Of a stretch of DNA of 64,000 nucleotides, positions 10,998-46,572 are shown in pieces. Under the pieces are notes generated by a model that did no database searches, was not told where the DNA came from, and saw nothing but the letters and a program-made list of their open reading frames with translations. The DNA is from Cytophagales bacterium (lineage in GTDB: Bacteria; Bacteroidota; Bacteroidia; Cytophagales; UBA9547). The first letter of the stretch is position 1, and each line of letters begins with the position of its first letter. The stretch is taken from NCBI GenBank assembly GCA_033765235.1, contig JANRIG010000019.1:143313-207312 (forward strand). The letters run 5' to 3'. Position numbers and translations under genes: made by a program.

Positions 10998-11060
10998 GCG
11001 CATAACAGATGAATTTATGAAGTTTTAATTTTATAAATTTATAGTTATGCGCATTTTTTT
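10998..11060 (+). terminator. Long interrupted hairpin plus T7; terminator-like structure at the right edge of the element
   Basis: GCGCATAAC (10998-11006) pairs with GTTATGCGC (11044-11052). An inner pair AATTTAT/ATAAATT also forms. A then TTTTTTT follows (11054-11060). Confidence 0.55.
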
Positions 11061-12183: not shown

Positions 12184-12636
12184 ATGTACATATCAGATTT
12201 TAAACTTCTTGATATACTTCGTGAAAAAATGGGCGAAGATGAAGCCCGTGCGCTCGTAGAATTTATAGAGATTAAAGTAGAAGACAAATATATTGAAGCC
12301 AAAAATGTATTTGCTACCAAAGAGGACCTCTTAAAACTTGAACTAAAAATAGTACAAGTAATACACAACAATCATTTGGAAGTACAAAAACTTATTGCAG
12401 ATACCAAGATAGAGACACAAAAAATTATTGCAGAGTCAAAAAATGACTTGCAAAAACTTATGGCAGAGTCAAAAAATGACTTGCAAAAACTTGTGGCAGA
12501 CTCAAAAAATGATTTGCAAAAACTTATTGCAGACTCTAAGTTTGAAACCATCAAGTGGCTTTTTGGATTTATATTGACCTCTACGGTAGCTATCATAGGT
12601 ACTATACTGGCCGTGATGAAAATGGGTGGCTGGTAA
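12184..12636 (+). CDS. DUF1640-like coiled-coil protein with C-terminal TM anchor and internal 11-aa repeats
   Basis: (A/V)(E/D)SKNDLQKL(M/V/I) is repeated. C-terminal segment WLFGFILTSTVAIIGTILAV. Confidence 0.6.
   Translation: MYISDFKLLDILREKMGEDEARALVEFIEIKVEDKYIEAKNVFATKEDLLKLELKIVQVIHNNHLEVQKLIADTKIETQKIIAESKNDLQKLMAESKNDLQKLVADSKNDLQKLIADSKFETIKWLFGFILTSTVAIIGTILAVMKMGGW
12397..12540 (+). repeat. In-frame 33-bp tandem repeat (about 4.4 copies) inside the coiled-coil gene
   Basis: GCAGAGTCAAAAAATGACTTGCAAAAACTTATG at 12430, 12463 and 12496. A degenerate copy lies at 12397 and a partial copy at 12529. Confidence 0.85.
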
Positions 12637-32081: not shown

Positions 32082-32343
32082 AATATTAAGAATTGGTTTA
32101 TTGTATATTAAATTTTAAATATATTTATTGAAAAACTTTATTCTATAAATACATTTATTGTGCCAATGAAGTTAAATGTTGAATTTATGACAAAATTGCA
32201 GAAGGCATGGGCATATTGTCAGTAAATGAATAACCATACCTCGTTCTGTGTCATTGTAGTGAGAAATAAACATTTCAGAACTCTTCATTAAAAATTTGTA
32301 AAAATCCAAATCGGTCTTTATTTGTATCATAATGGAGGACTGC

Positions 32344-32450
32344 ACGGATATACTAGGCTATTTTTCAAACATGTGCGCAAAACTACGTCCTGCAAATCTC
32401 GTTCTTAAACGAGACCCAATCTTGCATAAATACCATGTTATGTGAGGGCA
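32344..32450 (-). repeat. Cassette-flanking repeat, copy B (T module plus truncated P module)
   Basis: The minus strand reads TGCCCTCACATAACATGGTATTTATG, then hairpin TCTCGTT/AACGAGA, then GTAGTTTTGCGCACATGTTTGAAAAATAGCCTAGTATATCCGT. This matches 40611-40707. Confidence 0.7.
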
Positions 32451-32453
32451 GTC

Positions 32454-33020
32454 TTATTTTACTTCCGATTCTTTGGGTTTAAATGTCTTTTTATTGTTCA
32501 TTATTTTCACCGTGTCTCCACTTGGTTTCAAGACAAACAGTCCTTTGCTTTCAGCATATTTGTCTACTCCTTCACCAATTATCATTCCAGCTACACCAGC
32601 CAAAAGGGTTTTGCCTTGAATTCCAACCATTGGGTGGTCTTGAATTTTTGTTAAACGAATAAGATGCTCATCTACATGCTCCGTTCTTATTGTGTTTTTC
32701 ACTTCTATGGCAATTGCATATTTAGAGTTATAGATTAATATGTCAACTTCATATATAAACTCATTTTTGTGGTCTTTTTGAACATAATGATTTGTAATGG
32801 CGTGAACAGGTATTCCCCAATTGTCAAACTTGTTAATCAAGTCCGCTCGTACTTGTTCTTCTGCAAAGCGACCTAAAGTGTCGCCTAAGTCTGCAATTTG
32901 CTTATTTGTTTGAGCGAAACGTTTATCTAGCTCTTTTGATACTTTTTCAAATTTCTGGTCGAAGCGTCTATCAGTTTCAGCAAAAAGTTCTAATACATGT
33001 TCATATGTCAATTCAGCCAT
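32454..33020 (-). CDS. PD-(D/E)xK nuclease-fold protein with N-terminal coiled-coil
   Basis: EVDILIYNSKYAIAIEVK supplies a D...ExK motif. 188 aa. The N-terminus is helical and charged. Confidence 0.55.
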   Translation of the reverse strand: MAELTYEHVLELFAETDRRFDQKFEKVSKELDKRFAQTNKQIADLGDTLGRFAEEQVRADLINKFDNWGIPVHAITNHYVQKDHKNEFIYEVDILIYNSKYAIAIEVKNTIRTEHVDEHLIRLTKIQDHPMVGIQGKTLLAGVAGMIIGEGVDKYAESKGLFVLKPSGDTVKIMNNKKTFKPKESEVK

Positions 33021-33095: not shown

Positions 33096-33204
33096 AACGG
33101 CTCACCTATTTGCCAAGTGGGTGACCAAAGAGGCTCCATGCACAAATATAGAAGTAAACACTGAGATATACAAGGCTCTTTTTCACACATTAGCGCAAAT
33201 GTAG
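33096..33204 (-). repeat. Cassette-flanking repeat, copy A (full 109-bp P module)
   Basis: The minus strand reads CTACATTTGCGCTAATGTGTGAAAAAGAGCCTTGTATATCTCAGTGTTTACTTCTATATTTGTGCATGGAGCCTCTTTGGTCACCCACTTGGCAAATAGGTGAGCCGTT. It aligns over its full length with 40663-40771. Confidence 0.75.
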
Positions 33205-33456
33205 CTTAAATGCAATTGCGCCTATTTCGCATTTAGTGGTAACCATTTGTGCTGCTGCTGCTGTATTAATTCTTGTTCTGTTTATATTCTTTGATTTTAT
33301 ACCTTACAACAATACATAATCTGTTTAATATTTCCAAATTATCAAACGGACATTTCATGCCACCCGGTATTTTGCTTGTATTGTGGGTGTAAAGATGATG
33401 ATTGATGTTTTTTTATATCACAAAATGATATTGATTTGCAGCAAATATATTGTAGT

Positions 33457-38367: not shown

Positions 38368-39552
38368 ATGGAAGGTCTTAATATCATTACATGTCCTAAG
38401 TGCAAACACCAATTTAATGCCGAAAAAGCATTGACCGACGAGGTAGAGCTCAGGTTGCGCACAGAGTATAACCAAAGATATAAAGGTGAAGTTGCCAAAA
38501 AAGAAGCAGAAATGCAACTTAGGTTGCAAGAATCTCAAAAAGAACTGGCTGATAAACAAAAAGAAACCGAAAAATTGCTCAAAGACAAAATAAAACAAGA
38601 TTTTGAGTTGGAGCTAAAATCTCAAAAAGAGGAGCTTGAGCAGCGCAAAAACGAAATATATGCGCTCAAAACCAAAGAGATAGAGCTCATGAAAAAAGAG
38701 CAGGCACTCACTGAGCAGTCTAGATTAGCAGCCATAGAGTTTGACAAAAAAATGCTCGAAGAAAGTAAAAAGCTGGAAGAAAATATAAGAAAGAAGATAG
38801 AAGAGCAATCTGTGCTTGCTCTCAAAGAAAAAGATATACTGATAGAGCAGCTAAAAAAACACATGGATGAGATGAACAAAAAAGCCGGTCAAGGCTCCAT
38901 GCAGCTGCAAGGCGAAGCTCAAGAGATGGTGCTGAAAGATATATTAAAAAGCGCATTCCCACTGGATATGATAAGTGACGTGGCTGTGGGGGTAAAAGGT
39001 GCAGACCTGGTGCAGCATGTAAAAAATAATATGGGCAAAGATTGCGGCACTATAGTGTATGAAAGCAAGCGTACTAAGCACTTTGCAGCAGAATGGATTG
39101 ATAAATTAAAAAATGACTTGCGTGCCCAAAAAGCCAATGTAGCCCTGTTGGTGACCGAGACTATGCCCAAAGATATGGAAAAATTTGGCGAAAAAGACGG
39201 TGTATGGATATGTACTTTTGCAGAAGTAGTAGCACTTGCTACCGTGCTAAGGCACTCACTAATAGACATATATGAGGTGCGTATGTCGCAAGATAATAAA
39301 GGTGAAAAGATGCATATGTTGTATGACTTTCTTACGGGTACAGAGTTCAAATCACATATTGAGGCTATAGCTGAGGGCTTCATAGCCATGCAGCAAAGTT
39401 TGCAAAAAGAGAAATTGATAGCACAAAAAAACTGGGCAGAGCGCGAAAAAATGACAGAAAAGGTATTAGTAAATATGATGAATATGTATGGTGGTATCAA
39501 AGGTATAGCAGGCAATGCGGTGCCTGAGCTTAAGCTATTGGAAGCGGAATAG
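38368..39552 (+). CDS. DUF2130-like protein (zinc-ribbon, long coiled-coil, C-terminal nuclease-like domain)
   Basis: ITCPKCKHQFNAEKAL, then about 180 aa of charged coiled-coil, then GADLVQHV...IVYESKRTK (a D...ExK-like motif). I prefer ATG 38368. Confidence 0.6.
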   Translation: MEGLNIITCPKCKHQFNAEKALTDEVELRLRTEYNQRYKGEVAKKEAEMQLRLQESQKELADKQKETEKLLKDKIKQDFELELKSQKEELEQRKNEIYALKTKEIELMKKEQALTEQSRLAAIEFDKKMLEESKKLEENIRKKIEEQSVLALKEKDILIEQLKKHMDEMNKKAGQGSMQLQGEAQEMVLKDILKSAFPLDMISDVAVGVKGADLVQHVKNNMGKDCGTIVYESKRTKHFAAEWIDKLKNDLRAQKANVALLVTETMPKDMEKFGEKDGVWICTFAEVVALATVLRHSLIDIYEVRMSQDNKGEKMHMLYDFLTGTEFKSHIEAIAEGFIAMQQSLQKEKLIAQKNWAEREKMTEKVLVNMMNMYGGIKGIAGNAVPELKLLEAE

Positions 39553-39562
39553 AATTATAGTA

Positions 39563-39632
39563 TGGATTGCGCTCCTGAGCGAAAAATAGCCTTGTATATA
39601 TCCGAGTTTACTTCTATATTTGTGCATGGAGT
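39563..39632 (+). repeat. Cassette-flanking repeat, copy C (P module fused to the XRE gene start)
   Basis: GATTGCGCTCCTGAGCGAAAAATAGCCTTGTATATATCCGAGTTTACTTCTATATTTGTGCATGGAGT. It contains CTTG, a 20-nt spacer, then TATATTTG (39615-39622), 3 nt before the ATG. Confidence 0.75.
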
Positions 39633-39949
39633 TTAAAGAAATAAAAACCTATTCGATTGCCGAAATGAAATACAAGTATATTGGCAAAGTTGGGACTACT
39701 TACCGTGATGAGTATGAATATGAACTGCGCATGGACGTGTTGGGCAAAATGATTAAATCTGCAAGATAAGAACGCCATCTGACACAGGAAGAGCTTGGCA
39801 AACTTGTAGGTGTACAAAAAGCTCAAATTTATAAACTTGAAAGCAGTGCCAACAGTGCAACAATTGACTCGGTTTTGAAAGTTTTCAAAGCATTAAAAGC
39901 GGAGATTAATTTTAACGTAAAACTTGAAAAAAATTTTTTATTAAAATAG
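39626..39949 (+). pseudogene. XRE-family HTH (antitoxin-like) gene interrupted by an in-frame TAA
   Basis: My own translation gives MEFKEIKTYSIAEMKYKYIGKVGTTYRDEYEYELRMDVLGKMIKSAR, then a stop at 39767-39769, then ERHLTQEELGKLVGVQKAQIYKLESSANSATIDSVLKVFKALKAEINFNVKL.... The HTH lies after the stop. Confidence 0.7.
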
Positions 39950-40019
39950 CATAAAAAAATAAACTTACCAACACCCCATTAAAAATCATATTTTTGAAAA
40001 CGATAAGATAACAATTATA

Positions 40020-40484
40020 GTGAAGCAAAGAATTTACATCGATACATCTGTTTTCGGAGGACACTTTGACGAAGAGTTCAAGGAACATACTATTCCGCTT
40101 TTTGAAAGAATAAAATCTGGAGAATTTATAATACTATACTCGACAGTTACACAAAACGAACTTGAAAATGCACCTGAGAAAGTAAAAGAGCTTGTAAAAA
40201 GCCTAAGAGCCGACTTGACTGAATTTATCGAAACAACAGATGAAGCGGTTGACTTGGCGACTGATTACATTGCAGAAAAAGTAGTAGGAAAAACAAGTTA
40301 TGCCGACTGCATACACATTGCATTGGCGACCATTAATCGGGCAGACTTTTTAGTGAGTTGGAACTTCAAACATATTGTAAACATTGAAAGAATAAGGGGT
40401 TATAATTCAATCAATATTAAAAACGGATACAAACAATTAGAAATACGTTCACCAAGAGAATTTGAAAAATATGAAAACGACTGA
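40020..40484 (+). CDS. PIN-domain-like protein (VapC-like toxin candidate)
   Basis: GTG start. IYIDTSVF is an N-terminal acidic PIN block. It also has NELEN, YADCIHIALA and SWNFKHI. 154 aa. Confidence 0.5.
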   Translation: MKQRIYIDTSVFGGHFDEEFKEHTIPLFERIKSGEFIILYSTVTQNELENAPEKVKELVKSLRADLTEFIETTDEAVDLATDYIAEKVVGKTSYADCIHIALATINRADFLVSWNFKHIVNIERIRGYNSINIKNGYKQLEIRSPREFEKYEND

Positions 40485-40623
40485 AAAAACATTTGACGCT
40501 GTAAAATTTATGCGTCATGAGAGAGACAAATTAAGTGATAAATTGTCCAAAATGACAAAAACTGAAATTTTAGAATATTTCAAAAATAGTAAAAGGGAGG
40601 TTACAATTAAGCCCTGTGCATAA
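40471..40623 (+). CDS. small 50-aa protein overlapping the PIN gene end (partner/antitoxin candidate; below ORF-track cut-off)
   Basis: My own translation gives MKTTEKTFDAVKFMRHERDKLSDKLSKMTKTEILEYFKNSKREVTIKPCA. It overlaps the PIN gene by 14 nt. Confidence 0.45.
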   Translation: MKTTEKTFDAVKFMRHERDKLSDKLSKMTKTEILEYFKNSKREVTIKPCA

Positions 40624-40771
40624 CATGGTATTTATGAATGAAGGGGTGTAGTTTATTAGGTAGTAGTTTTGCGCTCATGTATAAAAAATAGCCTTGTATA
40701 TATCCGTATTTACTTCTATATTTGTACATAGAGTCTCTTTTGTCACCCACATCGCCAAACCCCAAACCGTT
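40611..40771 (+). repeat. Cassette-flanking repeat, copy D (T module 40611-40640 plus full 109-bp P module 40663-40771)
   Basis: GCCCTGTGCATAACATGGTATTTATGAATG ... GTAGTTTTGCGCTCATGTATAAAAAATAGCCTTGTATATATCCGTATTTACTTCTATATTTGTACATAGAGTCTCTTTTGTCACCCACATCGCCAAACCCCAAACCGTT. Confidence 0.75.
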
Positions 40772-40790
40772 CCTGCTTATAAAATAACTT

Positions 40791-41354
40791 ATGAAAAAAA
40801 TTCTATTGATTATTATAACATATAGTTTGATAAATTTTTCTTATGCTCAAGAAAGCCAACCTAATAATGGCATGGGATTTGGTTTTCAAATTTGCCAATA
40901 TCAAAAAGACTTTGGACTTGGATTGAATTTGATGAGTCCTAGTTTTTTTTATAATAGAATATCAGTAAGAGTAAGGAGCAATTTGGTTTTTAATGAAAGA
41001 GTGGTAGGTATTATTCCTATAAACTCACCTGTGTATGAGGAAACAGTGTGGACACCATACGCAAACATTTCACTCGGTATGGTAGGTATTACAGGATTTA
41101 TACACGACAAAATCAGGCTATATTCAGAAGGTGGACTTATTGCTATCATACCATCAAAATTAATAACCTCAAAAGATGTCATTATTGGCGGTTATGGATT
41201 ATTCGGCGTTGAATTTTTTATGGATAACTTAACCAACTATTTTATTGAAATAGGTGCTGTGGGCACTGGTGCTGTCGCTGATATGGTAATCAGAAGACCC
41301 ATTTATTCAAATGGTCTGTTGATAAATACCGGCTTCAGATTTCAGCTGAAATAA
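40791..41354 (+). CDS. hypothetical outer-membrane beta-barrel-like protein
   Basis: Signal peptide MKKILLIIITYSLINFSYAQ, Gly-rich alternating strands, C-terminal ...GFRFQLK. Confidence 0.5.
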   Translation: MKKILLIIITYSLINFSYAQESQPNNGMGFGFQICQYQKDFGLGLNLMSPSFFYNRISVRVRSNLVFNERVVGIIPINSPVYEETVWTPYANISLGMVGITGFIHDKIRLYSEGGLIAIIPSKLITSKDVIIGGYGLFGVEFFMDNLTNYFIEIGAVGTGAVADMVIRRPIYSNGLLINTGFRFQLK

Positions 41355-46477: not shown

Positions 46478-46572
46478 AACATTGAAATTATATACTTAAT
46501 ACTATTGATTTTCAATGTTACTATACATTTAACATTGAAATTATATGCTTATTTGTTTGGATTATCAATGTT
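46478..46572. repeat. Two 42-bp direct repeat units, each bounded by inverted AACATTGA/TCAATGTT; operator-like
   Basis: The units lie at 46478-46519 and 46531-46572, with about 34 of 42 positions identical by my count. TACTTTTG (46579-46586) and ATG 46591 follow. Confidence 0.7.

Follow-up and report, generated by a model that had tools for sequence, protein, structure and literature searches.

Two small clusters of genes bordered by copies of one repeat lie on opposite strands of a 64-kb window (the whole stretch of 64,000 nucleotides analyzed, from contig JANRIG010000019.1) of chromosomal Bacteroidota DNA from an uncultured Cytophagales bacterium. On the minus strand, a gene for a 188-aa protein stands between repeat copies A and B; on the plus strand, copies C and D enclose an XRE/HigA-type antitoxin pseudogene, a PIN/VapC-like gene and a 50-aa open reading frame (ORF). 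The PIN protein is identical to MDX2195754.1 of a Cytophagales metagenome-assembled genome (locus tags NW207_), and short-read contigs of the same organism (DRR729080, DRR729082, and DRR729084) match the window at 100%. In the original prediction, made from the DNA letters alone, the repeat was divided into a promoter-bearing element P and a terminator-like module T, arranged as “P … T+P” around each cargo, and was read as the bracket of a new, possibly mobile cassette system. The region is interpreted here, with a probability of roughly 0.7, as a chromosomal relic left by integron gene cassettes.

Repeat Copies and Cargo Genes at the Two Loci

The features of both loci are listed in Table 1. 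An nhmmer profile of the four repeat copies found only A–D as significant matches in the 64 kb (E = 1.9e-40 for D, 3e-37 for A, 9.6e-34 for B, and 1.7e-25 for C), and a 22-mer of P had three matches at three or fewer mismatches, where shuffled sequences gave an expectation of 0. These searches and the identity comparisons placed the copies where they had been predicted. Copies C and D contain a direct pair (39567-39632 and 40669-40734; 86% identity over 66 nt) with inverted partners at 33109-33221 and 32348-32442, and their 51-bp cores differ, as originally counted, at four positions (39605, 39606, 39624, and 39628); ATGGAG, at 39626 in copy C, is ATAGAG in copy D. Identity varies along the repeat: the P core is 85–86% identical in all three pairs among A, C, and D, the 3′ arm is 70% identical, and the T arm is 75% identical between B and D and 47% between A and D. 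The T arm of copy B, and of B only, carries a copy-specific 8-bp hairpin insertion. The T sequence of the original prediction (GCCCTGTGCATAACATGGTATTTATG) does begin at 40611, inside the closing codons of the 50-aa ORF, and the T arm of D contains an R′′-like GTGCATAAC at 40616-40624. Beyond P, similarity between A and D continues for 37 nt, of which 26 are identical, and ends at CCGTT (A 33100-33096, D 40767-40771); the sequence downstream of D thus matches copy A and not the XRE gene, as had been noted. All four copies begin P with an unchanged TTGCGC (5′ edge of P; 39567-39572, 40669-40674, 33198-33193, and 32380-32375), which might be a protein-binding site.

Table 1. Positions of the repeat copies, predicted promoters and genes at the two loci.
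Feature	Position	Strand	Characteristics
Repeat copy A	33272-33096	minus	Diverged T arm, P core (ATGGAG), 3′ arm ending CCG/TTAAGT (G 33098)
Repeat copy B	32447-32344	minus	T arm CACATAACATGGTATTTATG; P only through GTATATCCGT (its 5′ half); no -7 box or 3′ arm
Repeat copy C	39553-39631	plus	Central P part only, without T arm and 3′ arm; fused at ATGGAG to the XRE frame
Repeat copy D	40616-40771	plus	Full length; T arm 40616-40668, P core 40669-40734, 3′ arm 40735-40771
Predicted promoter motif A	-33 TTG 33173-33171; -7 TATATTTG 33150-33143	minus	Predicted start ~33138; 118-nt leader to the 188-aa gene
Predicted promoter motif C	-33 TTG 39592-39594; -7 TATATTTG 39615-39622	plus	Predicted start ~39627, on the XRE ATG (39626); no leader
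Predicted promoter motif D	-33 TTG 40694-40696; -7 TATATTTG 40717-40724	plus	ATAGAG 40728-40733; predicted start ~40729; 62-nt leader to the 187-aa gene
XRE/HigA-type antitoxin pseudogene	39626-39949	plus	HTH_3; in-frame TAA 39767-39769 (codon 48)
PIN + 50-aa cassette body	39958-40629	plus	81–85% DNA identity to cassettes in other organisms
PIN/VapC-like gene	40020-40484	plus	PIN (PF01850), 26.6 bits (cut-off 23.6)
50-aa partner ORF	40471-40623	plus	Stop 40621-40623; overlaps the PIN gene by 14 nt; no family match
188-aa protein gene (cassette 1 cargo)	32454-33020	minus	Weak NERD/DUF3782/PD-(D/E)xK-like matches
52-aa ORF	32172-32330	minus	No family match; directly after truncated copy B, ahead of the groES promoter region
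187-aa signal-peptide protein gene	40791-41354	plus	No family match; G+C 0.33; downstream of copy D, ~62 nt past the predicted start of its P

P and T patterns had no match in 185,579 species genomes, in JGI metagenomes (searched with two P patterns) or in viral contigs; both were absent from every locus fetched from other organisms (foreign loci hereafter), and a spurious 52-aa ORF overlapping P, used as a query against the protein collection, returned no further copies. The same-organism short-read contigs break with 29-nt overlaps inside copy A and inside the T arm of copy D; because these 29-mers are unique in the window, further and closer copies of the repeat probably exist elsewhere in that genome or community.

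The Cargo Genes in Foreign Cassette Arrays

The XRE family (108 aa) is 85–90% identical across Pedobacter, Algoriphagus, Aquiflexum, Dysgonamonadaceae, and Ignavibacteria, and the PIN family is 85–94% identical over the same range of organisms. In 20 of the 20 loci fetched, the foreign XRE gene stands 4–10 nt behind a Gp49/HigB-like toxin gene, within arrays of small genes of various kinds, all on one strand (among them GmrSD, AbiEii, acetyltransferase, glyoxalase, and SUKH). The Gp49-XRE cassette of these arrays has its 5′ boundary at CG/TTGTGCGTCAGC (the slash marking the crossover) behind varied hairpin sites, and includes its own promoter. The foreign PIN+50aa cassette, in which the 50-aa ORF is 80% conserved together with PIN, begins exactly at G/TTATGCACAAGG behind five different neighbors and ends in a 132-nt hairpin site, the sequences diverging directly after its GTT. 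In loci L031 and L033 the PIN gene follows a tyrosine recombinase whose best family matches are NF040815 and TIGR02249; that of L031 scores 228 bits against NF040815 (“tyrosine recombinase/integron integrase”; cut-off 220), and TIGR02249 (integron integrase; cut-off 265) ranks above XerC/D for both, at 214 (L031) and 174 (L033).

Thirty attC-like hairpins were collected from the foreign loci, 12 being aligned for structure and 19 used for profiles; the alignment of the 12 contains 23 consensus pairs, 20 of which show compensatory changes. Because their structure, position and boundary behavior fit, the 30 hairpins are genuine attC sites. Varied arrays, exact G/TT borders and a 3′ attC are found in both the PIN+50aa and the Gp49-XRE family, and the two cargo units XRE and PIN+50aa are bona fide integron cassette genes in other Bacteroidota and Ignavibacteria, where their relatives are 80–94% identical; the predicted origin of the cargo in a mobile gene pool is thereby borne out. 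In three of the foreign loci (L013, L015, and L017), the Gp49-XRE cassette lies near an IS91-type Y2 transposase, small tyrosine-recombinase pairs and a group II intron reverse transcriptase, so these arrays appear to be hot spots for other mobile elements.

In the window the same units are worn. The XRE gene was correctly called a pseudogene: its codon 48 reads TAA in place of the family's CAA (Gln). Homology to the foreign loci, at ~80% DNA identity, begins at the XRE ATG; no Gp49 gene stands next to the window XRE, and the 5′ UTR (untranslated region) and promoter of the cassette are also gone, the promoter and the Gp49 gene covering ~440 nt in foreign loci. A toxin gene directly upstream of an intact antitoxin gene, as in a HigB(Gp49)-HigA(XRE) pair, is accordingly not found in the window. 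The junction falls inside ATGGAG or directly behind it, the repeat and the XRE start having this hexamer in common (ATGGAA in the family), in agreement with the break point originally placed directly after it. The window XRE is thus best regarded, from these alignments, as the remnant of a Gp49-XRE integron cassette that has lost its toxin gene and promoter. The PIN gene and its 50-aa partner both appear intact, and homology to foreign PIN cassettes extends from 39958/39980 to 40629, ending inside T; the canonical boundary G/TTATGCACAAGG at the 5′ end of the cassette is absent or has diverged, and the interval from the XRE stop (39949) to the point where PIN-cassette homology sets in (39958) contains no attC. 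Neither window cassette has an intact 5′ boundary (TTRRRY) together with an attC of its own. For the 188-aa cargo protein, a search of protein representatives returned a family of 1554 clusters with best identities of 50–62%.

The Repeat as an attC-Derived Unit

The first bases of T (GTGCATAACATGGT) correspond to the R′′/L′′ start of the foreign PIN attC (GTGCATAACACGGT), and both begin at the same point. A full-length profile of the 19 foreign attCs, run over the whole window, has its best match in copy D (40619-40771; model positions 2-128; E = 0.0034). When the arms are taken separately, the two best window matches of the foreign 5′-arm profile are the T arms of B and D, and the best match of the 3′-arm profile is the end of D. 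The 3′ arm of D (TCACCCACATCGCCAAACCCCAAACCGTT) closely matches the attC consensus (tcccccacgtcgccaaccccgaaaaCGTT), with a 24-nt central insertion in the alignment, and copy D starts with GCATAAC and ends with CCG/TT (G 40769, TT 40770-40771), showing the sequence homology expected of an attC; it is at this same G/TT crossover position that the similarity between A and D ends. In copy B, attC homology is limited to the 5′ arm. The profile matches and the consensus alignment therefore show that T, P and the leader behind P form one unit of ~156 nt, homologous from end to end to the 132-nt foreign attC family, in which T matches the R′′/L′′ arm and the leader the L′/R′ arm, with an expanded center between them and the end at the crossover G/TT. 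The modular architecture with different cargo at two loci is upheld; the “P … T+P” arrangement as a new promoter/terminator bracket is replaced by a single attC-derived site beside ordinary integron cassettes.

Other identities of the repeat were considered and rejected. A 59-nt attC (T...GTTTTGCGC) followed by a separate gene-less promoter cassette would leave T without L-box pairing and the P part without an R′′ (AAC) box. Copies A, B, and D have no terminal inverted repeats or flanking duplications of the kind expected of a miniature inverted-repeat transposable element (MITE) or a Correia-like element. An invertible promoter, suggested by an imperfect inverted repeat of 9 bp that surrounds the promoter core in copy A, was dropped because this repeat spans only 37 bp. 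The proposed terminator role of T was not borne out, as a scan of 39400-40900 found no intrinsic terminator and T of copy D folds at -3.5 kcal/mol (z = 0.27), no better than shuffled sequences; a structured leader RNA was rejected on z values of 0.0, 1.07, and 1.18.

A Predicted Promoter in the Repeat Center

A Bacteroidota sigma-A promoter was defined as TTG at -33 and TAnnTTTG at -7, separated by a spacer of ~19–21 nt; the -7 box occupies -12 to -5 in this phylum (PMC9723704). Copies A, C, and D each contain TTG-N20-TATATTTG, which agrees with this consensus, and none of the 30 foreign attC-like hairpins has the motif. Such motifs number 22 in the window vs. 6.9 ± 2.5 in shuffled sequences. 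As the P core is the best-conserved segment of the repeat, it may have been kept as a promoter, and its motif probably drives the downstream genes. The promoter would have been retained for the 187-aa gene behind copy D, for the PIN operon behind copy C, and for the 188-aa gene behind copy A, in the last case jointly with that gene's own second motif (TTG-N19-TATATTTG at 33064-33035). The original proposal that the cassette supplies its own promoter thus holds in part: P carries the full Bacteroidota consensus, but it is not the XRE gene's own promoter, as the foreign XRE genes all follow Gp49.

Structural Decay and Absence of an Integrase

Recombination of attC sites requires folding of the single strand (PMC12614218). 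The arms of the window copies form duplexes of only -7.4 (D) and -6.9 kcal/mol (A), close to shuffled arms (about -8), whereas the 19 foreign sites reach -20.1 ± 4.7; the whole-unit fold of D has z ~0, and the R′′/R′ and L′′/L′ pairing of an attC palindrome is not seen in the window copies. A covariance model built from the foreign attC sites (R1) was used as a stand-in for the curated attC model of IntegronFinder. Its best window match (32708-32820, plus strand; 19.7 bits; E = 0.027; model positions 9-121) lies antisense inside the 188-aa cargo gene, has no R boxes and is probably an AT-rich chance match.

No integrase was found in the window by tblastn with five tyrosine recombinases of the foreign loci (best E = 0.095), and within the window no array is accompanied by an integrase, attI and the cassette promoter Pc, as in a complete integron. 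The same-organism contigs contain the filled arrangement throughout, with no empty or alternative arrangement; look-ups of the flanking proteins returned the same filled arrangement only, and DUF2130 relatives in reference genomes (45–57% identical) are without P. The non-pairing arms, the failed structure model and the lack of an integrase in the window together lead to the reading of the locus as a fixed relic. The present mobility suggested earlier finds no support in the unpaired arms, in the window without a recombinase or in any same-organism short-read contig, and an empty site, the lack of which the original prediction had named as a refutation, is not seen in those contigs as far as the data reach. 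The assembly graph, however, hints at more copies elsewhere.

A 55-nt near-perfect hairpin at 10998-11052 (GCGCATAAC...GTTATGCGC; -13.6 kcal/mol), followed by a T7 run, lies between a 128-aa ORF and a His_biosynth gene. The boxes at its two ends (GCATAAC/GTTATGC) are identical to the core of the foreign PIN cassette, and the hairpin could be a minimal attC-like site or a plain terminator.

Proposed Origin and Alternative Explanations

The following history would account for the arrangement. The cassettes would once have been delivered by integrase-mediated recombination and since have been frozen in place. In this lineage, their attC would have acquired a central insertion of ~24 nt and a consensus promoter reading toward the next gene. 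At copy C, a microhomology-mediated deletion may have joined the ATGGAG of the repeat to ATGGA at the XRE start, removing the native promoter and the Gp49 gene; the orphan antitoxin gene would afterwards have acquired its stop codon, and an attC once present between the XRE and PIN cassettes would have been lost too.

Several observations weigh against the relic interpretation. The matches of the 5′- and 3′-arm profiles are each weak (E = 0.4–0.65), copy A is matched by no foreign profile and is tied to attC only through its similarity to D, and neither the P core nor the invariant TTGCGC has a counterpart in foreign attCs. The model R1 gives copy D only 10.7 bits (E = 2.5 window-wide) and misses copy A, so that neither qualifies as an attC site under the operational test in common use. 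The recombinases beside the foreign arrays fall below the curated cut-off for integron integrases. Finally, the predicted start of copy C falls on the XRE ATG, and as leaderless mRNAs make up only ~5% in flavobacteria (PMC9723704), the fusion of this copy to XRE looks accidental.

Three other explanations were weighed against the relic of integron cassettes. The first takes T+P to be an independent, lineage-specific intergenic repeat (a MITE, a repetitive extragenic palindromic (REP)-like sequence or a promoter module) beside captured cassettes, its likeness to attC being carry-over from the PIN cassette. The lack of a counterpart to P in foreign attCs, the failure of the structure model, the weak single-arm E-values and the resemblance, by eye, of the 10998-11052 hairpin to T...TTGCGC of copies B and D would all suit such a repeat. 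It nevertheless seems unlikely: copy B follows different cargo and still has the attC-like 5′ arm that is the top window match of the foreign 5′ profile, and the 3′ arm of D lies ~115 nt past the end of PIN-cassette homology, yet is close to the attC 3′ consensus and ends in CGTT. Moreover, only four copies exist in the 64 kb, all at cassette borders and without terminal inverted repeats or target duplications, none occurs in any public collection scanned, and the similarity of the 10998-11052 hairpin to T is not significant.

The second explanation is an active integron-like system, in which T+P is the organism's own attC type, the integrase is encoded elsewhere and each cassette is expressed from the promoter in the preceding site; this restates the mobile, self-promoting cassette of the original prediction in integron terms. 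The window copies resemble one another far more than they do any foreign attC, a pattern seen in sedentary chromosomal integrons; A, C, and D have all conserved the promoter, the contig breaks at window-unique 29-mers imply further, closer copies elsewhere, and promoters within cassette arrays, even within attC, have precedent (PMC11014356). An active system is nonetheless improbable, because the arms of A and D pair no better than shuffled sequence and fail the covariance model, copies B and C are truncated, XRE is a pseudogene without its toxin partner, the XRE and PIN cassettes have no attC between them, the 64-kb window holds no integrase, and the same-organism contigs show no empty site or other arrangement. 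The related possibility that a chromosomal integron at another place in the genome uses T+P as its functional attC type, with the window copies as its worn satellites, is similarly doubtful.

The last, a simple local duplication of the XRE promoter region without any cassette logic, is suggested by the fusion of P to the XRE start codon in copy C and can be dismissed, because in the 20 foreign loci Gp49 precedes XRE with the promoter upstream of Gp49, window homology starts at the XRE ATG, and the other three copies flank unrelated genes.

Neighboring Genes and Other Features of the Window

The genes groES and groEL lie to the left of copy B. Between copies A and C are genes for a DUF4199 protein, a glycosyltransferase (GT2), a UvrD/PD-(D/E)xK helicase and a DUF2130 protein, and copy C begins directly after the DUF2130 stop (39550-39552); to the right of copy D, the gene for the 187-aa secreted protein is followed by an aldo-keto reductase gene. 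The cargo genes have a G+C content of 0.33–0.35, vs. 0.38–0.43 in neighboring core genes. The two mini-arrays (33096-33272, minus strand, and 39553-40771, plus strand) are mutually inverted around 6.3 kb of core genes, and their P cores, at 85–86% identity, are a possible substrate for inversion of this block. The 52-aa ORF behind copy B may be the remnant of a third cassette.

No tRNA or tmRNA gene was found in the window, and Rfam gave no match to the whole window at gathering thresholds or to the two loci at E up to 5. A tandem pair of 42-nt palindromes (46478-46519 and 46531-46572; AACATTGAAA...TTTTCAATGTT), 83% alike, stands just upstream of an AAA_14/DUF4143 ATPase gene and looks like a paired operator. 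A 150-aa ORF without a Pfam match (12184-12636) contains four to five 33-nt tandem coding repeats of the QKLIA(D/E)SKNDL type (12385-12549).

Comparison with Known Systems

Most integron cassettes are held to lack a promoter and to be expressed only when close to Pc. Under the relic interpretation, the locus would illustrate the fate of cassettes stranded in a Bacteroidota chromosome, where the hairpin decays and the central promoter motif is conserved, which suggests that a recombination site has been turned to regulatory use. Should the genome also contain intact attC sites with such a promoter, these would offer a new answer to the question of how large arrays are expressed: a built-in sigma-A promoter would let each cassette be transcribed from the site ahead of it and not from a distant Pc. 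If there are no intact sites, the locus is an ordinary degraded integron remnant, useful as a caution that structure-based attC finders miss such relics and that cassette-borne toxin–antitoxin (TA) genes can mimic a novel mobile system.

Correia- and MITE-type repeats are short non-coding elements at gene borders with promoter potential; unlike them, the window repeat has low copy number, lacks terminal inverted repeats and target-site duplications, and has ends homologous to attC arms. Few integrons are known from Bacteroidota in complete-genome surveys, and within the Bacteroidetes/Chlorobi group they were found in complete genomes only of Chlorobi, Ignavibacteriae and Salinibacter (PMC9024848); insertion of cassettes outside the integron platform, at genomic attG sites, is also possible (PMC12614218, citing Loot et al. 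2024). The TA cassettes of chromosomal integrons (PMC13108822) resemble Gp49-XRE and PIN+50aa as two-gene cassettes, the foreign Gp49-XRE having its own promoter; in contrast to them, the Gp49-XRE pair is broken here, and the PIN pair has an uncharacterized 50-aa partner downstream of the putative toxin gene. Sedentary chromosomal integrons have homogeneous attC families, the Vibrio cholerae repeats being an example (PMC5371416, PMC8191803). There, as in the window, each cassette is followed by a repeat peculiar to the species, with copies far more alike than the attCs of different hosts; the V. cholerae repeats, however, keep their hairpin and recombine, whereas the window copies, of 156 nt or truncated, are unfolded and have no platform nearby.

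Clusters of attC sites without an integrase, regarded as degraded integrons (CALIN; PMC4889954, PMC9024848), are the closest known kind. The window differs from them in that its sites fail the structure-based attC test and have unpaired arms, so that a standard CALIN call would probably not be made, and in that its clusters are tiny (one or two cassettes) and form an inverted pair around 6.3 kb of core genes. It shares with them chromosomal, same-strand cassette-type genes split by attC-related sites, no integrase nearby, and typical cassette cargo, namely a TA pair and small genes of unknown function. Promoter-active gene-less cassettes are known from Vibrio superintegrons and from Treponema/oral integrons, and in one such Vibrio cassette transcription starts inside its attC (PMC11014356, PMC6557892). 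The window repeat is like these in being a non-coding array element with a sense-strand promoter motif that could express the downstream cassette; they differ in being separate ORF-less units with a functional attC, whereas here the predicted motif lies in the attC-derived center and occurs in three copies. Judged from these sequence comparisons, the locus would belong to no new kind of mobile element and appears to be what remains of a known system, set apart by one unusual feature, a predicted promoter in the attC-derived center.

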